Below are positions 1,996 to 31,857 of a stretch of DNA of 38,839 nucleotides, in pieces (position 1 is the stretch's first letter; every line of letters starts with the position of its first letter). The stretch lies in UHGV virus genome UHGV-1367571; one strand, 5' to 3'. The notes beneath the pieces were generated by a model. That model searched no databases, was not told the DNA's origin, and worked only from the letters and a program-made list of their open reading frames with translations. This DNA is from a virus. The position numbers and the translations under genes were made by a program.

Positions 1996-2025
1996 TTGAC
2001 TTTGTAAGCGCTTTCATGGTATAAT
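1996..2025 (+). promoter_or_regulatory. plus-strand promoter TTGACT-18-TGgTATAAT with GTAAGCGCTTtC in the spacer
   Basis: Same architecture as the late promoters at 21719 and 23305. It points away from all neighbouring genes. Confidence 0.55.
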
Positions 2026-2031
2026 AATTTA

Positions 2032-2137
2032 TAGATAGGGGATCTGTTCCCTATCTCCTTCCTCCATTTTTGTTTATACTTTTTCATTCTTCTTTCATTT
2101 CTTTCTTCTGTAGCCCCTCTCGTCAGGGGCTTTTTTA
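2032..2137 (+). ncRNA. candidate small RNA of about 105 nt, defined by promoter 1996..2025 and intrinsic terminator 2112..2137
   Basis: No ORF. Contains the hairpin GATAGGG..CCCTATC, the pyrimidine tract CTCCTTCCTCC (anti-SD-like) and a terminal 7-bp GC stem AGCCCCT/AGGGGCT followed by TTTTTT. Confidence 0.35.
2112..2137 (+). terminator. rho-independent terminator (AGCCCCT-CTCGTC-AGGGGCT followed by T6)
   Basis: Perfect 7-bp GC-rich stem with a U-tract in plus-strand orientation only. Confidence 0.65.
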
Positions 2138-2376
2138 ATACCCTTTTAATAACATATGTTATTTTATAAACAAATAAATAGACTTAGAACCTGAGTTTGT
2201 CCAATGGGGACAATAAACTTTTCTAAGTCTTAATCTATTATATTATGTGAGTTTTGTTTTCTTCGTCGCTCTCACACTAACGACAAGCCACACTGTAGCT
2301 CTTCTTATACTGCACATCATGTGTACAGTTTATTTCGCCGACTTTAAGGAGTTAACGGCTTTCCTTTTATAATTAT

Positions 2377-8714: not shown

Positions 8715-10472
8715 TTAAAATGTTATTTCTTCATCGGTTAGCAGGTCACTATTTTCTTTTGAAATACCATAGAATACTCGTTTTTTACCTACGTTGGTCG
8801 TTTTTTCCAGATCGCCATTGTTTAATTTATTCCGAATCATTTTGAGATCCAACTCGTTATAAACCAGTTTTCTAAATGAAGCATGTTTCAAAATTTTAGC
8901 CGAGTTATTTTCTGAAAACCATTCTTTAAAGTCCTCATACAGATCGCCACGGTTCACATAATCCTCTTCATTATTAGTAATAGTATAATCTGACTCTAAT
9001 AAAAACTGCTTTACTGGATTATTTTCAGCTTGCCAATCGCCTTTTAATCTAATAGCTATATCTGATTGATACAATGGATCTTGTGTAAATTGTCCGTTTT
9101 TCTCATCATACCATTTATTTCTAGCTGTTTGGATTGCTAAATAGATTAGTTTTCTAAGGTCTGTATCATCGGATCCCAATAATTTTTCTCGGTAGTCGTA
9201 AATTTCTAGTGATTTTTTTTGGTTTTCGGGATCTCTCATATTGTTCTGAAATACTAGCAAATCTAATCGGCGCTCTGTTGCTCCATCTCGTGAGCTTAAT
9301 TGTGGTAATTGGTTAGCGTTTAGCCAAAAATTCGCCTTATTTTGAAACATCATTCCATCACTATATAAGTTCCGTGCTTTTAATTGTGCTTGTCCTGTGA
9401 TTAATTTTTTAAGTGTTTCAATGTTTTCCAGATAGTTGGTTTTTACATCATCATCAAAATTGACTAGGGCGCCAACTAAAGGCATTAATTTTGTATCTGG
9501 GGTTTGGCTTGTAATATCTGCTAACGATACCTCAGCCCACAATGATTTACCTATTGTTTCAAAGCAACGTTTAACGACTAATTGCACCTCTGATTTTCCG
9601 TTACCGTGATCGCTAATGCCTTGTAAAGTGTTCCCTACCGAAACCAAAGCCGATTGAGAAAGACTTGCCTTATTAAAGAATGATAGTCCTAAGAACTCTA
9701 AAAAGGTTCGTTTACTGTCACCTAATAAGAACTCTAACCATTCCTCAAAGGGTTGTTTTTGTTTAATGTCGTATTCTATTGGTGTGTGTTTCAAACGTCC
9801 TAATACATAATCATCACCTTGGGGGGCTTGAAAGCTATTTGTATGAATATTAAATGTTTTTGTAAACGGAATTAAGTATTCTTTTTTACCAATAAAAGGG
9901 TTTTCCTCAGGTGTCACTTGGTTTACTTGTCGTGTGATTGCAGTAATCAACTCGTTTTGTTGCTTAATTGGAATGGTTACCGTTCTTAATAGTGGGTTTA
10001 CAATCGATCCAGTTACAACTTTCTCGGCGGCATCTTTATCTATTTTCCAGATCTTATTTACCTCGTCAAAAATAACCATCTCTATTTCATTGTTACTCAT
10101 TAAGTGACCTTGTTTGGCTATTAAGGATCCTAATAAAGAAACATCATCTATATAAGGGGTATATTCACCTGTTTTTTTATTCTCTCTATATTGTATTACC
10201 TCTGTTTGTCTTAATTCTTTAAATAATTTTTCAGGATAATCTGGTTCTTTAAATGATAAAATACTTGTTTCAAGATTATTTCTTAATTGTTCTTGTTTTT
10301 CTCTATCTAAGTCACCTAGTTCGATTAGTTGTTCTGGAATAGGTTCGGTATTTGGTGTAATCTCCTTTAGTTTTTCGTTTCTGAGGTTTTCTCTAAACTT
10401 TTCCATTTCCTCGGCGCTCATCACTTGGTTATCCGTTGTTAATTCATCTAGTGGGTTTTCAAATTGTTCCAT
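8715..10472 (-). CDS. SF3 helicase, D5/P4-family primase-helicase C-terminal-like protein (585 aa)
   Basis: Walker A GNGKSEV and Walker-B-like NFDDD within a D5_C-like region, recognised from memory. RBS AGGAGGA. Confidence 0.7.
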   Translation of the reverse strand: MEQFENPLDELTTDNQVMSAEEMEKFRENLRNEKLKEITPNTEPIPEQLIELGDLDREKQEQLRNNLETSILSFKEPDYPEKLFKELRQTEVIQYRENKKTGEYTPYIDDVSLLGSLIAKQGHLMSNNEIEMVIFDEVNKIWKIDKDAAEKVVTGSIVNPLLRTVTIPIKQQNELITAITRQVNQVTPEENPFIGKKEYLIPFTKTFNIHTNSFQAPQGDDYVLGRLKHTPIEYDIKQKQPFEEWLEFLLGDSKRTFLEFLGLSFFNKASLSQSALVSVGNTLQGISDHGNGKSEVQLVVKRCFETIGKSLWAEVSLADITSQTPDTKLMPLVGALVNFDDDVKTNYLENIETLKKLITGQAQLKARNLYSDGMMFQNKANFWLNANQLPQLSSRDGATERRLDLLVFQNNMRDPENQKKSLEIYDYREKLLGSDDTDLRKLIYLAIQTARNKWYDEKNGQFTQDPLYQSDIAIRLKGDWQAENNPVKQFLLESDYTITNNEEDYVNRGDLYEDFKEWFSENNSAKILKHASFRKLVYNELDLKMIRNKLNNGDLEKTTNVGKKRVFYGISKENSDLLTDEEITF

Positions 10473-10486
10473 GTGTTACATTCCTC

Positions 10487-10702
10487 CTATTTATCTAATT
10501 TCATATTAATAACTCTAAAATCTGGTTGTTCATACTCACTTATTTTAAAGCCTTTTGACATTCCTTTTTCCAAGTGTCTGTAAAATGTTCGTTTTGATAC
10601 GTTTAATAATTCGCAAGCTTTTTCAACTGTGACAACTAGATCACCTGTATATTTTTCGCCATCTTGGTTTAGAGGACATTCTTCAATTAAGTAAAATTTC
10701 AT
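10487..10702 (-). CDS. small HTH DNA-binding protein, putative early regulator (71 aa)
   Basis: LLNVSKRTFYRHLEKG helix-turn-helix. First gene after the divergent control region. Confidence 0.6.
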   Translation of the reverse strand: MKFYLIEECPLNQDGEKYTGDLVVTVEKACELLNVSKRTFYRHLEKGMSKGFKISEYEQPDFRVINMKLDK

Positions 10703-11179: not shown

Positions 11180-11188
11180 TGTTATAAT
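11180..11188 (+). promoter_or_regulatory. extended -10 promoter TGtTATAAT for the rightward operon
   Basis: Sits 20 bp downstream of the last CTCCCAAAA repeat. Confidence 0.5.
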
Positions 11189-11657: not shown

Positions 11658-12962
11658 ATGAGTATTAAATTATTTGATCATCAAATCGAGCAAGTTAAAG
11701 AAGGGATTAAAGGTAAAAACTTTAATCAAAGTGAAGTGGGAACTGGTAAGACATTCGTAGGACTGACATTATTTAAAGAAAGTAAGTATAAAAAACTTTT
11801 AGTATTATGCTTGGCTGCTAAAGTTACCGATTTTGTTTCTGACGGTGAAAAAGTAGGATTAGAAATAACCGCTTTAAATAAAGGAACGACTAAAAATAAA
11901 GTATTATTGGAAGGCAAATCTGCAGTATCGATTAGTTTTGAGAGCAGTTGGCGACTAACTGACCTTAATAAGTGGGTGGATCAGGATACAATGATCTTAA
12001 TTGACGAATCACACAAGGTCAAAAGTACAACATCTAAAGTAGGTATGTTTATTAATAAGTTATCCAGAAAAGCAGGGTATAGTTATCTAATGACGGCAAG
12101 CCCAATTAGTAATGGTCGTTACGAGGATCTTTGGAATCAGTTGTTTATTGCAGGAATCTATACCGAATCATATAAGAAATTTAAAGATCGCTATTGTATT
12201 GAAGAACTTCAAGAAATGAAAGTGAGAGGTCAAACGAAATACTTTAATCAGATTGTTGGTTATAAAAATACCGATGAATTATTAGGACTATTAAAAGATC
12301 ATTCGGTTTATAAAGCTAGAGATATTGAGGATCACTTATTACCAGAAGATATTTTCTACTATACTAAAAAACCAACCATGTATAATAAGTTAGTCAAGAA
12401 TAGGATCCTAGAGTTACCTAATGGCGAGATCGTTGAGTATGATAATCTACCTAAGCTAAGACATGCTCTATTACAATTGTGTAGTGGTGTATTAGGTGAG
12501 ATTGATAAACCTTTACGTAAAGACAAATTAGAACGTACTGCACAGATCCTAGACGAAAACAAAGGCAATCGAGTCGTTATCTTTTATAATTACAATAGTG
12601 AGAAAGCAGCACTCATTAATCTACTAACTGACATCGGTCGGGTTTGGTCTGTCTATAATGGTGAGTCACATAACTTAGAGGAGTTTAAGAACGATCAAGA
12701 AGGAGTAGTGCTAGCACAGTATAAGTCTGCCTCAACTGGAATTAATGATTTTGTAATTGCTCATGTAACTATTTTCTTTGGATCATGTGACAGTAGTACA
12801 ACTTATATTCAAGCCAAAGGAAGAACGAACAGACATGGTCAAACTAAGAAACCTATCTACTATCATCTAATCGCTGAGAAGTCGGTAGAGTATAAAGTAT
12901 TCCATGAGTATGTACAGCAAGGCAAAGACATTACAGATAAGATCATAGAGTCCCTATTATAA
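11658..12962 (+). CDS. SNF2/DEAD-like superfamily-2 helicase
   Basis: Motif I GTGKT, motif II DESH, motif VI QAKGRTNRHGQ. Confidence 0.85.
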   Translation: MSIKLFDHQIEQVKEGIKGKNFNQSEVGTGKTFVGLTLFKESKYKKLLVLCLAAKVTDFVSDGEKVGLEITALNKGTTKNKVLLEGKSAVSISFESSWRLTDLNKWVDQDTMILIDESHKVKSTTSKVGMFINKLSRKAGYSYLMTASPISNGRYEDLWNQLFIAGIYTESYKKFKDRYCIEELQEMKVRGQTKYFNQIVGYKNTDELLGLLKDHSVYKARDIEDHLLPEDIFYYTKKPTMYNKLVKNRILELPNGEIVEYDNLPKLRHALLQLCSGVLGEIDKPLRKDKLERTAQILDENKGNRVVIFYNYNSEKAALINLLTDIGRVWSVYNGESHNLEEFKNDQEGVVLAQYKSASTGINDFVIAHVTIFFGSCDSSTTYIQAKGRTNRHGQTKKPIYYHLIAEKSVEYKVFHEYVQQGKDITDKIIESLL

Positions 12963-13342
12963 TTAGTAGGGTATCATGATCGGGGTATTGCTATACTAAG
13001 TAGGGGTAGTGATATAATAGTAGGGCTATTGAGTGGGGTACCACATATAGAGATAGGGCTATGTAGATAGGGGGTAGGGGAGTAAGGGGTAGGCTATAAT
13101 GGTAAGGTGTTGACAAGTAATAGTTAATATGTTAGTGTGATAGTATCTTAATGATTAGTGTAAATGATTATAGTAACTAATATATAATGAAGGTGATACT
13201 GGTTGTTAAGGTACTACAATACATAAGGATCCAATACAATCAATGCAACTAAAGATAATTAATGCAACCTAAATAAAAGTAAGGGGATCATAATATATTT
13301 TAGTAAGTGGATCGCAACATAAAAGGTAGCAACATTATTCTA

Positions 13343-13388
13343 GGGTAGGGGTATCTGGCAGGGGGTAGGGGTAGGGTGGTAGGGTAGG
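13343..13388 (+). repeat. G-quadruplex-forming tract GGG-TA-GGGG-N9-GGGGG-TA-GGGG-TA-GGG-TGGTA-GGG-TAGG (TAGGG-type repeats)
   Basis: At least six G3+ runs with 2-9-nt loops. Similar tracts at 13046..13093 and 12969..13006. Confidence 0.6.
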
Positions 13389-13767
13389 CAGTAGGTCAAC
13401 CAACTAAACACGAACGATAGTAATATAAATTTAAAAAATTATTCGTAAAAAATAAAAAATTAATTTAAAATAAAAAATAAAAAAATAGGAAAAAAATTTA
13501 ATTAAATAACAAAAAAATTTTTCAGAAGTCCAAAAATAATTTCAGAAATTTTATCCCCGAGTCCCCCCGCTTTCAAAAAAATTCAAGTACCCCCGACTCA
13601 GATTGAACCGCCCCCCATATTATCTTCACACAATTCCTCAAAATCTATTTTGAATTTCAATTTTACTACGACAGGTGGAGTACTTAGAAAATATAGTTTA
13701 TAAATAATCAACGTAACAAAGAGAATAACATAACATAACACGTTAATAATAATCAGGAGGTTTTTAA

Positions 13768-14217
13768 ATGTATATAGCGAACCCGAATGGAAAAATCATT
13801 TTTGAAAAAAGACATATCTTACTAGCAAACCCGAACGAGCTAGAGTTAACTGGTTGTTTAGACAGGATCAACGAGTTAGGAATTGAGTATATGAACTGGT
13901 TAATCTTAAACGATCAAGCAGACTACTTTTATAAATCACCAATCTGGTATAAGACAGTACGACCCGAGATATTGGAACGAGATAAGCATGAGTGCCAACT
14001 ATGCAAGCTACAGGGAAAACTAACAGTAGTCCAAAAAAGAGGATACGTCCACCATATCGCAGAGTTGAAAGAGTTCCCTCACGTGGCACTAAACTATAAC
14101 AATTTAATTACATTGTGTTACCATTGCCATGAGGTTACTCACGAAAGAGTTTTTAATATTAACAATATTCAGACTATTGATACTTTCGATAATTTTGATA
14201 GCTCGGAAACGTGGTAG
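13768..14217 (+). CDS. HNH endonuclease (terminase-associated)
   Basis: CQLC..HHIAE..N..CYHCHEVTH HNH/zinc-finger motif. RBS AGGAGG. Confidence 0.85.
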   Translation: MYIANPNGKIIFEKRHILLANPNELELTGCLDRINELGIEYMNWLILNDQADYFYKSPIWYKTVRPEILERDKHECQLCKLQGKLTVVQKRGYVHHIAELKEFPHVALNYNNLITLCYHCHEVTHERVFNINNIQTIDTFDNFDSSETW

Positions 14218-14278
14218 TTTGTAAACGCCTTCCTAAATGTGATATAATAGAAATAGATATTATAAAGGAGGCGTTTAT

Positions 14279-20075: not shown

Positions 20076-20141
20076 TAGTAAGGGGGCGCTTGTAATGAGT
20101 GTCCCTTTTGTGCTATAATAAATTATAAAGGAGGTAACACT

Positions 20142-21279: not shown

Positions 21280-21717
21280 ATGGCAATATTCGTTAAGAAC
21301 GTGGATAAGGTTAAGGCTGAGGTTTACGGCTATCCTAAGAAGTTTACTAAAGAAGTTCGGCAAGTAATGAATACAACTGGTTTTGAAACCATTAAAAAAG
21401 AGGTTCAATCAAGGATCCCAGTATCCAAAGGTAACAAGAACAGAAAACCTAGTAAGTCTAATACAAAATCGAAACAACATGCTAGGGAGGCTAAAGTAAT
21501 ACGTAAAGCAGGATTGCAAGGTAAACGTGATTATAGGATAGTTGGTTTTTACCTAACATTTTATAAAAACTTTTGGTATCTAAAATTCCCGAATGAAGGG
21601 ACAGGACAAGCTAGGGGAAATAGACCAGTTAAGTTCTTAGAAAAAGGCGCCCTAGCCGCTAGAAAGCCGATCCAACAACAAGTAAATAGAGCGATAAAAA
21701 ATTCTCGTATTCGTTAA
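21280..21717 (+). CDS. tail terminator-like protein
   Basis: Gene order. Confidence 0.45.
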   Translation: MAIFVKNVDKVKAEVYGYPKKFTKEVRQVMNTTGFETIKKEVQSRIPVSKGNKNRKPSKSNTKSKQHAREAKVIRKAGLQGKRDYRIVGFYLTFYKNFWYLKFPNEGTGQARGNRPVKFLEKGALAARKPIQQQVNRAIKNSRIR

Positions 21718-21718
21718 C

Positions 21719-21748
21719 TTGCTTTTGTAAGCGCTTACATGGTATAAT
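21719..21748 (+). promoter_or_regulatory. late promoter TTGCTT-18-TGgTATAAT with the perfect palindrome GTAAGCGCTTAC (21727..21738) in the spacer
   Basis: Extended -10 and palindrome. Confidence 0.6.
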
Positions 21749-21790: not shown

Positions 21791-22615
21791 ATGGCAAATG
21801 CACCAATCCAATTCGATAGTGTTGACATCGGCACGATCGGTTTTAAATTTGAAGGCGATGAAACAACCGTGGCAAGTGATTGTAATGGTACTTTATCAGT
21901 TGAAACAGAAGTACAGGAAGTACAGAAAAAATGTGGCGCTACAGTAGTGGCTTCTATTTCTAAACCTACTGAAATGACAATTACAATCGAGGCACATTTA
22001 CCAGTAGAGGTATTCCGCCGTGTACAAGGTATTAAACCGATGGCAGAATTAAAAGAAGGCGTTTACGCTTATGGTGGTAAGTCTGCAGGTGAAAAATTCA
22101 CATTAACAGCTGAGATCTTAGACTTATTCACAGGTGAAAGTAAATTAATTGCATTCCCTAAAGCTGCTATTAACACAGGATTAACTTTCTCAATTGAGGC
22201 AGGAGCTGACGAATTAGCATATGTGGAAATTGAAACCAAAGCCTATCAAGATGAGTTAGGTAACTGGTACTATGAAGCATTCCCAACTGAGGCAACTGAC
22301 GTTAATAAAGTGGAATGGTTAACTAACTTCACTGAGGCGACTGTAAAAAAGTCTGATCCAACCAAAACGACAGATATTACACTAGATAAAAGTACGGTAT
22401 CCGTGGCGGTTGGTGCTGATGTGGTGGTAAATGCTACTTTAGTTCCGTCAACAAGTACAGAACCAGTTACAGCAACATCTAAGGCGGTAGCAACGGCAAC
22501 AGCAAGCGTAGCACAAAAAGCAGTAACTATTCACGGTGTTAAAGCAGGATCCACTACAGTAGACATTACAAGCGGTAAGATCACTAAAACAGTAACCGTT
22601 ACAGTAACAGAATAG
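21791..22615 (+). CDS. major tail protein with C-terminal Big_2 Ig-like domain
   Basis: The C-terminal region (ITLDKSTVSV..VKAGSTTVDITSG..TVTVTVTE) matches Big_2. Confidence 0.75.
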   Translation: MANAPIQFDSVDIGTIGFKFEGDETTVASDCNGTLSVETEVQEVQKKCGATVVASISKPTEMTITIEAHLPVEVFRRVQGIKPMAELKEGVYAYGGKSAGEKFTLTAEILDLFTGESKLIAFPKAAINTGLTFSIEAGADELAYVEIETKAYQDELGNWYYEAFPTEATDVNKVEWLTNFTEATVKKSDPTKTTDITLDKSTVSVAVGADVVVNATLVPSTSTEPVTATSKAVATATASVAQKAVTIHGVKAGSTTVDITSGKITKTVTVTVTE

Positions 22616-23261: not shown

Positions 23262-23267
23262 TTACAG

Positions 23268-23296
23268 CGCTCTTAATTAAGTTTAAGGGCGTTTTT
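23268..23296 (+). terminator. terminator-like hairpin CGCTCTT/AAGGGCG followed by T5
   Basis: Hairpin plus T-run. Confidence 0.45.
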
Positions 23297-23304
23297 GTAT
23301 GGAG

Positions 23305-23334
23305 TTGTGTAAGCGCTTACATTTATGGTATAAT
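23305..23334 (+). promoter_or_regulatory. late promoter TTGTGT-18-TGgTATAAT with GTAAGCGCTTAC (23309..23320) in the spacer
   Basis: Extended -10 and palindrome. Confidence 0.6.
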
Positions 23335-26432: not shown

Positions 26433-26458
26433 AGGGGGTTGTAATATACTCCCTTTTT
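26433..26458 (+). terminator. terminator AGGGGGT-loop-ACTCCCT followed by T5, with TGcTATAAT directly downstream
   Basis: Hairpin plus T-run. Confidence 0.55.
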
Positions 26459-26496
26459 ATGCTATAATTAAGTTATCAAGAAAAGGAGGTTTTTCA

Positions 26497-30184: not shown

Positions 30185-30202
30185 TATATTAATAAACATC
30201 TA

Positions 30203-30228
30203 AGGGGCTTGTAATGAGTCCCTTTTTT
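30203..30228 (+). terminator. terminator AGGGGC-TTGTAATGA-GTCCCT followed by T6, with TGtGgTATAAT downstream
   Basis: Hairpin plus T-run. Confidence 0.55.
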
Positions 30229-30255
30229 GTGGTATAATATAAGTTATAAAGCGAG

Positions 30256-30609
30256 GTGTTTATTGTGTTAAATGAATTGTTAAACCTAAATTCGATAGTT
30301 AGCGAGTTGTTTGGCTTTACTGTCTTAGGTGGGGTTGTGGTTATATTTAAATATATAATCTCATTTATGAAACGGCTGAAAGAAAGTAACTTGGCAACGA
30401 AAGAGGCTGTTAAAAGTTTGCTGCATAACGCAATATATACGGAATGTAATGCTTATATTGATCGAGGCTATATTTATTCCGATGAGTTCAAAAACCTTCA
30501 CTACCTATATTCTTCTTATATCGCTTTAGGGGGCGGTGGTGCTTTGGTGGACTTATTCAATAAAGTAAAGGATCTCGATTGGAAAGGAGTAGAGAAACAT
30601 GAAAATTAA
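30256..30609 (+). CDS. one-TM holin-like or lysis accessory protein. The true start is probably the GTG at 30265, which has the RBS GCGAGGTG.
   Basis: TM segment FGFTVLGGVVVIF. Located in the lysis cassette. Confidence 0.45.
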   Translation: MFIVLNELLNLNSIVSELFGFTVLGGVVVIFKYIISFMKRLKESNLATKEAVKSLLHNAIYTECNAYIDRGYIYSDEFKNLHYLYSSYIALGGGGALVDLFNKVKDLDWKGVEKHEN

Positions 30610-30859
30610 TTGGAAAGTTAGATTTAAGAACCCTTTATTTATCGCTCAATTAGTTATGTCTGTATTGGTTCCTATCGTAGGTTATGCAGGAATTACTTTA
30701 GCAGACTTGACCAGTTGGGGAGCTTTAGGGACATTATTATTAAATGCTATTTCTAATCCATATGTAATTGGTTTAGTTACAATTAGTGTTTATAATGCTA
30801 TTATCGATCCAACTACCAAGGGTCAAAAAGACAGTACAAAAATTCTAAATAAAAAATAA
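30599..30859 (+). CDS. holin (phage_holin_1/phi LC3-like family)
   Basis: N-terminus MKINWKVRFKNPLF typical of this holin family. Two TM segments. Confidence 0.7.
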   Translation: MKINWKVRFKNPLFIAQLVMSVLVPIVGYAGITLADLTSWGALGTLLLNAISNPYVIGLVTISVYNAIIDPTTKGQKDSTKILNKK

Positions 30860-30864
30860 GAGGT

Positions 30865-31857
30865 GTGAAAATGAAATTTAAAACTTTATTAACTGGATTA
30901 GTGATCGCTGCAGGATCTTTTTTATTTGCTCAAAATGTAAGCGCTTACACTATTAACGATGAATTTAATTTAAGTCCATATGAAGGTAGCGGACAAGTGG
31001 CGTATCCTAACAAGATTATTCTGCATGAAACTGCTAACGATCGAGCAACAGGGCGCAATGAGGCAACATATATGAAACGTAACTGGTTTAATGCTCATAC
31101 AACGGCTATCGTAGGTGATGGCGGTATTGTATATAGAGTAGCGCCAGAAGGCAACGTTTCTTGGGGAGCAGGTTTAGCCAATCCATATAGTCCAGTTCAG
31201 ATCGAATTACAACACACAAACGACCCTGAATTATTCAAAAAGAATTACAAGGCATATATTGACTATACTCGGGACATGGGTAAAAAGTTCGGGATCCCTA
31301 TGAGCTTAGATAGTGGTGTTAGTCTTTGGGAAAAAGGGGTAGTGAGTCACGCTTGGGTATCTGCGAATGTGTGGGGCGATCATAGTGACCCCTACGGCTA
31401 TCTTGCTAAAATGGGTATCAGTCGCAATCAGTTAGCCCACGATCTCGCCAATGGTGTTTCTGGATCCAATGAACAACCTAAGCCAACACCTGAGAAACCT
31501 AAACCAGTGCAGCCTAACAAACCAAGTAACAAGAAACGCTTTAATTATCGTGTGGACGGTTTAGAGTATGTAAATGGTATGTGGCAGATCTACAACGAAC
31601 ACCTAGGAAAAGTAGATTTTAATTGGTCTGATAACGGTATTCCAGTCGAATTTGTAGATAAAGTAAACCCTGCTACTGGTCAACCTACTAAAGATCAAGT
31701 GTTAAAAGTAGGGGATTATTTCAACTTTCAAATTAACAGCGTGGGAGTGGTGAATAGTCAAACTCCTTACATGGGATATACTTTAAGCGCTACTCAATTA
31801 CCAACTGAATTTATCTGGTTGTTTACTGAAAGCAAAGACAAATTATTATATCAATAA
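30865..31857 (+). CDS. endolysin: N-acetylmuramoyl-L-alanine amidase (Amidase_2/PGRP-like) with N-terminal Sec signal peptide and C-terminal binding domain
   Basis: Signal peptide MKMKFKTLLTGLVIAAGSFLFAQNVSA. Amidase_2-like ILHETAN..AHTTAIVGDGGIVYRV..VSHAWVSA. Confidence 0.8.
   Translation: MKMKFKTLLTGLVIAAGSFLFAQNVSAYTINDEFNLSPYEGSGQVAYPNKIILHETANDRATGRNEATYMKRNWFNAHTTAIVGDGGIVYRVAPEGNVSWGAGLANPYSPVQIELQHTNDPELFKKNYKAYIDYTRDMGKKFGIPMSLDSGVSLWEKGVVSHAWVSANVWGDHSDPYGYLAKMGISRNQLAHDLANGVSGSNEQPKPTPEKPKPVQPNKPSNKKRFNYRVDGLEYVNGMWQIYNEHLGKVDFNWSDNGIPVEFVDKVNPATGQPTKDQVLKVGDYFNFQINSVGVVNSQTPYMGYTLSATQLPTEFIWLFTESKDKLLYQ

Follow-up and report, generated by a model that had tools for sequence, protein, structure and literature searches.

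Candidate cre operators at tail, tape-measure and lysis genes of a probable enterococcal phage

Introduction

There is a precedent for a virulent phage that carries operators for a global regulator of its host. The early promoters of the Bacillus phage phi29 reportedly contain Spo0A boxes, the effect of which is said to have been shown experimentally by the Meijer and Salas laboratory. Short sites can also be repeated across a phage genome and be bound by a protein of the phage itself. The stoperators of the cluster A mycobacteriophages (L5 gp71) are asymmetric 13-mers, which are present in about 20-30 copies, depend on orientation and are bound by the phage repressor. Dyads in promoter spacers are found at MerR promoters, which have spacers of 19-20 bp and need activation. 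The operators of the LacI family share a dyad of 14-16 bp with a central CG.

The cre site is the operator of CcpA, a dimer of the LacI/GalR family that is activated by HPr-Ser46-P at high glycolytic flux (PMC2941500, PMC8359418). A genome-wide study of B. subtilis gave TGAAAGCGCTTTCA as the consensus of the strong cre boxes, which have a GCpGC centre, conserved C13 and A14, and greater symmetry (PMC3463425). Strong repression is obtained from boxes near -27 and -14, boxes past the start site block elongation, and strong boxes draw CcpA off weak ones (PMC3463425). In B. subtilis the acoR and glpF boxes are at -27, the amyE box lies over the start site, and the xynP and treP boxes act as roadblocks; a cre regulon is present in E. 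faecalis as well. Control by CcpA and cre is documented in E. faecalis (PMC2941500, PMC8924694), in which ccpA mutations arise upon challenge with the phages VPE25 and phi47 (PMC8924694).

Here we describe palindromes that match cre in a virus genome of 38,839 nucleotides (UHGV-1367571). The whole of this stretch of DNA is called the window. No description of cre sites in phage late promoters, or of the exact 14-mer described below, was found in the literature searched, which was a single library.

The phage and its probable host

The window has a GC content of about 35%. Replication-type genes are on the minus strand at 1-10.7 kb and 31.9-38.8 kb, and include a Prim-Pol, a DUF5906 primase-like protein and a metallo-hydrolase. 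Genes for packaging, head, tail and lysis occupy the plus-strand block at 11.2-31.9 kb. The phage is probably virulent, given that the scanned ORFs revealed neither an integrase nor a repressor. Neither a phage sigma factor nor a phage RNA polymerase was seen in the window, and no tRNAs were found in it. The sole relative in INPHARED is the Enterococcus cecorum phage vB_CECAV_A40 (A40), which is 75.5% identical to the window over part of the structural genes, and the DNA polymerase of which has its position occupied in the window by a large minus-strand protein. From this relationship the host is probably an Enterococcus, and probably E. cecorum.

An intergenic gap of about 800 bp (12962-13768), between a helicase-like gene and an HNH gene, is filled first with the G-rich repeats GGGGTAGGG and TAGGGCTAT and then with an AT-rich stretch containing inverted repeats. 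This gap may be an origin or a packaging region.

The repeated palindrome

A preliminary description of this DNA had reported a 12-bp palindrome, GTAAGCGCTTAC, in three exact copies, which are indeed present at 21727-21738, 23309-23320 and 30937-30948, and an 11/12 copy, which reads GTAAGCGCTTTC at 2004-2015. It had also held that such a repetition cannot be due to chance. With up to one mismatch allowed, 0.09 matches to GTAAGCGCTTAC are expected, and four were reached in 0 of 100 shuffles. A search of the whole genome and of the related phages finds the motif far above chance in the window and retained in relatives.

Reading of the flanks identifies GTAAGCGCTTAC as the core of a longer unit. 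The three exact copies are extended to a perfect palindrome of 14 bp, TGTAAGCGCTTACA, in which 7 of 7 pairs are palindromic, and the fourth copy is a variant of this palindrome, TGTAAGCGCTTTCA (Table 1).

Other kinds of element were considered and rejected. The dyad is loopless and lies upstream of the start sites, which excludes an RNA hairpin or terminator. The sites of TnrA/GlnR and Crp/Fnr do not fit, as the half-site spacing is 4 nt here and 7 or 6 nt there. A restriction site AGCGCT was dismissed, because this hexamer has 14 occurrences in the window without the extended context and is thus neither avoided nor special.

Table 1. Positions of the palindromes, predicted promoters and associated features in the window
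Feature	Position	Strand	Remarks
Predicted small-RNA promoter	1996-2025	+	TTGACT (1996), 18-nt spacer, TGGTATAAT, TATAAT ending at 2025
cre-like site TGTAAGCGCTTTCA	2003-2016		In the spacer of the small-RNA promoter; variant of the 14-bp palindrome
Predicted small RNA, about 105 nt	2032-2138	+	5' hairpin, single-stranded CU-rich stretch, intrinsic terminator 2112-2131; predicted start
71-aa early protein	10487-10702	-	First gene of the leftward early operon; only candidate phage binder
Predicted late extended -10 promoters (about 10)	TG at 11180, 13010, 14240, 16687, 18646, 20111, 21740, 23326, 26460, 30230		
P_MTP, predicted sigma-A promoter	21719-21748	+	TTGCTT (21719-21724), 18-nt spacer, extended -10 TGGTATAAT, TATAAT 21743-21748
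cre-like palindrome TGTAAGCGCTTACA in P_MTP	21726-21739		Exact; fills the 18-nt spacer and abuts the TG of TGGTATAAT
P_TMP, predicted tape-measure promoter	23305-23334	+	Weak -35 TTGTGT (23305-23310), 18-nt spacer, TGGTATAAT from 23326
cre-like palindrome TGTAAGCGCTTACA at P_TMP	23308-23321		Exact; over the -35 and the upstream spacer, about -34 to -21
Predicted lysis-cassette promoter	30209-30238	+	TTGTAA, 18-nt spacer, TGGTATAAT; -35 in the loop of terminator hairpin 30202-30224
cre-like palindrome TGTAAGCGCTTACA in endolysin ORF	30936-30949		Exact; +66 to +79; candidate transcription roadblock

Match to the cre operator

The consensus forms of cre were taken from PMC2941500 and PMC8359418. 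The form TGWAANCGNTNWCA is matched by all four sites and by nothing else in the window. The 15-mer consensus of E. faecalis, WTGWAARCGYWWWCW (PMC2941500), is also matched by all four, when 0.01 matches are expected by chance. All four sites fit all three of the forms TGWAANCGNTNWCA, WTGNAANCGNWNNCW and WTGWAARCGYWWWCW on at least one strand. When judged by the features set out in PMC3463425, TGTAAGCGCTTACA has the invariant G2, the central C7-G8 and C13, together with G6, C9, A14 and the dyad symmetry of the strong boxes. Among the fully matching sites of the window and its relatives, which read TGTAAGCGCTTACA, TGTAAGCGCTTTCA or TGAAAGCGCTTACA, variation is confined to positions 3 and 12, where the consensus has W. 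The accidental match of a palindromic half-site to TGWAANC has odds of about 1 in 2000 by our own calculation. The placement of the sites is also compatible with cre: three are at about -34 to -17 of predicted promoters, and the fourth lies past the lysis-cassette promoter, within the endolysin ORF.

As the site matches cre position for position, a sensor of the carbon state of the host is a likelier binder than a late-gene factor of the phage. We consider it fairly probable that the four palindromes are cre operators of the host CcpA in complex with HPr-Ser46-P. A caution comes from the assignment of the host, which was made from 75% nucleotide identity to the E. cecorum phage A40.

Similar 14-bp dyads with a central CG are recognised by other host repressors of the LacI family. 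The binder might then be another, sugar-specific host LacI/GalR-family repressor, so that the phage genes would answer to one carbohydrate. The dyad layout is shared in this family, and the sequence alone cannot assign the paralogue, which tempers the identification of CcpA. The GCGC centre with TGWAA/TTWCA arms is, however, the reported optimum of CcpA (PMC3463425), and local repressors normally have operators only in their own operon. Binding by such a paralogue seems improbable to us.

Promoters that carry the palindrome

No terminator precedes P_MTP, which begins 2 nt past the stop codon of the neck gene (21280-21717) and is followed by a major-tail-type gene (21791-22615; PHROG major tail protein). 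The palindrome of P_MTP occupies about -30 to -17 with respect to the predicted start site. P_TMP is preceded by a terminator-like hairpin (23266-23293). The small-RNA promoter has the geometry of P_MTP, and the cores of the two are nearly identical over about 40 bp. They are near-copies, so part of the repetition could stem from duplication, a point against the identification of the sites as CcpA operators.

The palindrome had been described as lying between the -35 and the TG of the extended -10. This is true of P_MTP, where it abuts the TG, and of the small-RNA promoter. At P_TMP a distance of 4 bp separates it from the TG downstream, and it overlaps the weak -35.

The extended -10 element TGNTATAAT occurs 21 times in the window, versus 4.6 expected, and 10 of its copies are in plus-strand intergenic gaps of the late block. 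The palindrome is present in two of the approximately ten predicted late promoters and missing from the other eight. It is consequently not a general late-gene operator, and this distribution counts to some degree against CcpA as the binder as well. A general late-promoter element was rejected, the other late promoters having the form TTGTAA-N18-TGnTATAAT without the dyad. An operator of the MerR type, which would likewise place a dyad between the -35 and -10, was also rejected: the spacers are 18 nt long, the extended -10 TGGTATAAT is of consensus sequence, and the dyad slides by 0-4 bp among the relatives.

The promoters of this phage show other regularities. The layout TTGTAA, 18-nt spacer, TGnTATAAT is common to the late promoters at 20090-20119, 26439-26468 and 30209-30238. 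In each of the three the -35 is in the loop of a GC-rich terminator-like hairpin, the T-run of which leads into the extended -10, and a terminator and the next promoter are in this way fused within about 45 bp. The promoter at 14219-14248 has the -35 and -10 of the TTGTAA promoters, and no hairpin was seen there. On the minus strand, the early region has near-consensus promoters of the form TTGACA-N17-TATAAT/TATACT at 1382, 1649, 1970, 5262, 7676, 7920, 8390 and 10764. These amount to about one promoter for every one to three small genes; the late block relies instead on a weak -35 combined with an extended -10.

The small-RNA locus

The predicted small RNA lies within the early region and folds stably (z = -4.3). 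Its CU-rich stretch, CCUUCCUCC, is complementary to Shine-Dalgarno sequences. The site in its promoter is also about 33 bp upstream of the -35 of a divergent minus-strand promoter (1970-1942). In A40, the -35 and -10 of the small-RNA promoter and the 3' half of the RNA are conserved, and a weaker cre-like sequence with two mismatches, ATAAAGCGCTTTCA, is found just downstream of the -10 and not in the spacer.

The terminator of the small RNA is adjoined by a non-coding block of about 170 bp (2140-2305), which is 100% identical to A40 (~29890-30060 of L001); the genes that flank the block are about 75% identical to A40. A minus-strand promoter (2406-2377, with TGGTATAAT at 2385) has a predicted transcript that folds stably (z = -3.9) and contains a long GACUUAGAA/UUCUAAGUC hairpin. 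The block could be a structured RNA or a replication origin. No match to an Rfam family was obtained for the small RNA or for this block.

The endolysin site and the lysis cassette

The endolysin has Amidase_2 and ZoocinA_TRD domains. The codons of the palindrome encode N-V-S-A-Y-T, at the predicted cleavage site of the signal peptide. The site is about 690 nt downstream of the lysis-cassette promoter, and transcripts from this promoter must cross it. The endolysin begins with a typical Sec signal peptide, MKFKTLLTGLVIAAGSFLFAQNVSA|Y (30871-30945), as do about 25 prophage-type endolysins of IMG/VR, yet the phage has a holin gene (30599-30859) as well.

In the endolysin gene of the window, the palindrome arose from an ancestral AATGTAAACGCTTACGAG-like near-match that encoded N-V-N-A-Y-E and was dictated by the sequence of the signal peptide. 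This origin counts against the reading of the sites as CcpA operators.

In A40, L004 and L030, which are relatives of the window, the gene that precedes the holin carries TGTAAGCGCTTTCA at its 5' end. The codons of this site are the same in all three (AAT GTA AGC GCT TTC), the neighbouring codons have diverged, and the phages are otherwise only about 70% identical in protein. A degenerate copy is found at this place in L034. The window and L031 have N-L-N-S there and the site is absent; the window carries a site in the endolysin gene instead.

Conservation and turnover in relatives

Scans of metagenomes and genomes with the major tail protein gave no relatives, and a genome scan with the endolysin gave none. 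The motif can be followed in A40 and in related loci, given here by their L numbers. In the regions fetched of L037 and L038, which have a tail protein 99% identical, the three exact 14-mers are all retained. L039 and L040 (tail protein 86% identical) have TGTAAGCGCTTTCA at the same place with different flanks, L039 at both promoters and L040 at P_MTP, the only one that it covers. At about 75% nucleotide identity, A40 and the IMG/VR contig 3300045988_106111 have TGAAAGCGCTTACA at P_TMP, as has L004, and CGAAAGCGCTTTCA at P_MTP, 4 bp further upstream and with the 18-nt spacer unchanged. L032-L035 (72% over the N-terminal part) have a half-site, AAAAAGCGCTTTCA, shifted by 3 bp. Neither promoter spacer has a copy in L030 (about 70%), whose 20.8 kb contain a consensus match at +24 of the tail gene and two others elsewhere, and L031 (about 69%) has no copy. 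The absence of the site from the more distant L031, and the presence of degenerate copies only in L032-L035, weaken the case for CcpA. The consensus cre matches of L030 include TGAAAGCGTTGACA at +24 of the tail gene and TGTAAGCGTTTACA two genes upstream (10024-10037 and 9154-9167).

The palindrome of P_MTP has the same position as in the window in L037 and L039, and is shifted by 3-4 bp in A40, L002 and L032. The -35, the spacer length and the -10 of P_MTP are kept in seven relatives. The motif is thus tied to the same transcription units in the relatives while its exact place changes. Such behavior is expected of a protein-binding site that acts by occlusion or as a roadblock, and is unexpected for an RNA element or for simple sequence inheritance.

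The lineage has 13 consensus sites in 156 kb, versus at most 0.45 expected. In other phages there are 0 consensus sites in 512 kb from 26 loci, 25 of which were chosen for sharing the endolysin, and at most 1.44 would be expected. A scan of 2.9 million IMG/VR contigs found cre within 0-4 nt of an extended -10 in this lineage only.

These data bear on the possibility that the palindromes have no dedicated binding function. The repetition would then be due to the copying of a promoter cassette together with a chance match in the endolysin gene, or to a restriction-modification target, AGCGCT. The nearly identical cores of P_MTP and the small-RNA promoter, and the endolysin site with its AATGTAAACGCTTACGAG-like ancestors encoding N-V-N-A-Y-E, speak for such an origin. 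Against it, the motif slides within the promoters and its sequence is retained, the codons of the coding site are the same in phages about 70% identical in protein, the number of sites in the lineage far exceeds that expected, and 14 copies of AGCGCT in the window lack the extended context. An origin without function therefore appears rather improbable.

Candidate binders of the phage and possible titration of CcpA

The preliminary description had interpreted the palindrome as an operator for a dimeric regulator of the late genes. An operator is a reasonable reading of a perfect dyad which lies over promoter cores, is far above chance and is kept in relatives. The assignment to a late-gene regulator is not sustained, as the motif is present in two of about ten late promoters, one copy is at a small RNA of the early region, one is in coding sequence, and the site matches the cre of the host.

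A dimeric regulator encoded by the phage might nevertheless bind the sites and set the tail genes, lysis genes and small RNA on a schedule of the phage's own. The perfect dyad over promoter cores would suit it. The only candidate is the 71-aa early protein (Table 1), which has a weak, sub-threshold match to HTH_17 (25.2 bits, with a cut-off of 27). The protein is known from this lineage only (three homologue clusters, all in syntenic contigs), in parallel with the motif; being confined to the lineage, it has a distribution that cannot separate a host binder from a phage binder. The contigs L159 and L160, which encode homologues, stop short of the small-RNA and tail regions. The existence of a lineage-specific early protein with a helix-turn-helix match, even if weak, has to be set against CcpA as the binder. 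However, HTH_17 proteins are excisionase-like, and we know of none that reads LacI-type dyads. A scan of about 40 phage ORFs revealed no LacI-type protein. The match to cre at every constrained position, with variation at W positions only, would be a coincidence of about 1 in 2000 for an unrelated palindromic operator, and an operator of the phage's own late regulator would be expected in most promoters of the class, not in two of about ten. We regard a binder encoded by the phage as unlikely.

Alternatively, CcpA might bind the sites mainly as decoys. Upon replication, hundreds of perfect cre copies would titrate CcpA and free the catabolic genes of the host, and control of phage genes would be secondary. 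The phage sites have 7 of 7 palindromic pairs and any listed natural B. subtilis box has at most 6, and strong boxes are reported to pull CcpA from weak ones (PMC3463425). Dense arrays of the same palindrome in the unrelated viral contigs L121, L098 and L056 would also agree with titration. Decoys could sit anywhere, yet in every relative the sites remain either over promoter cores or a short way downstream of promoters, and four sites per genome are few. A role mainly in titration is, in our estimate, very improbable.

The arrays deserve a description of their own. L121 (with L101, IMGVR_UViG_3300001336_000161) contains 8 exact palindromes and about 10 cre-like variants in about 1.7 kb. The copies are between three paralogous small minus-strand ORFs, two of which were scanned and gave no Pfam match. 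L098 (IMGVR_UViG_3300025362_000004) has six tandem 24-bp repeats, each with the 14-mer, and L056 (IMGVR_UViG_3300001336_000016) has three copies of the palindrome. The arrays in L121/L101, L056 and L098 may be cre arrays or CcpA sponges of other phages, and hint that the use of CcpA by phages may be more widespread.

A possible mechanism

By combining the positions of the sites with the known properties of CcpA, it is possible to outline how the host regulator might act on the phage. The DNA itself shows that the sites match cre, are enriched, have a defined geometry in predicted promoters and are conserved with turnover; the identity of CcpA as the binder, the sign of the regulation and its physiological consequence are inferred. 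When glycolytic flux is high, host CcpA with HPr-Ser-P would bind all four sites. At P_MTP, P_TMP and the small-RNA promoter, which are strong promoters with an extended -10 and have the site over the -35 to -10 region, bound CcpA would block RNA polymerase. As P_MTP has no terminator upstream, bound CcpA would also stop read-through from the head-gene promoters. The terminator at 23266-23293 would insulate P_TMP, leaving its unit dependent on a promoter that is itself covered by cre. Transcripts from the lysis-cassette promoter would meet an elongation roadblock at the site in the endolysin ORF. A sugar-replete cell would consequently have the lowest expression of the tail tube, tape measure, lysin and small RNA. 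Release would occur when HPr-Ser-P falls, or when replicating phage genomes outnumber CcpA.

We propose tentatively, as a possibility and not as the expected outcome, that a virulent enterococcal phage wires CcpA/HPr-Ser-P into the expression of its tail tube, tape measure and endolysin. Assembly and lysis would then follow glycolytic flux and be released as the infected cell runs down, or when phage DNA outnumbers CcpA; the latter would constitute a copy-number timer, with host catabolism also derepressed. It is not obvious what the phage would gain by keeping its tail and lysis genes repressed while the host is well fed, and this speaks against CcpA.

If CcpA does bind, the phage would read the nutritional state of its host at the tail and lysis genes, and its latent period and burst size would depend on sugar. 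This would matter for phage therapy directed at E. cecorum in poultry, whose gut carbohydrate levels vary. The sites may also bear on the ccpA mutations of E. faecalis under phage pressure (PMC8924694), which is the nearest link found in the literature.

Comparison with known systems

The cre operators themselves are well known, and it is their setting, in the tail, tape-measure and lysis units of a probably virulent phage, that is unusual. The phage sites resemble the cre sites of Firmicutes in being 14-bp pseudo-palindromes of the form TGWAANCGNTNWCA with a central CpG, the GCGC core, C13 and A14, and in lying over a promoter core or, as roadblocks, further downstream (PMC3463425, PMC2941500). 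They differ from them in being on tail, tape-measure, endolysin and small-RNA units and not on catabolic operons of the host. They are also perfectly symmetric, unlike every natural box listed in the B. subtilis tables.

Like the stoperators, the palindrome is a short site that is repeated across a phage genome, both at promoters and inside transcription units, and stoperators block initiation and elongation. In contrast to them, the sites here are four in number, symmetric and matched to an operator of the host. The MerR-type spacer operators are similar in having a dyad between the -35 and -10.

The closest functional parallel known to us would be the Spo0A boxes of phi29. Both cases may be described as a virulent phage with operators of a host global regulator over its own sigma-A promoters, by which its development would track the physiology of the host. 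In phi29 the signal is sporulation, the targets are early promoters and the effect is reportedly experimental, whereas here tail and lysis genes are targeted and carbon status is the presumed signal. If the mechanism proposed above is correct, the window would provide a parallel to phi29 and Spo0A that acts on late and lysis functions.
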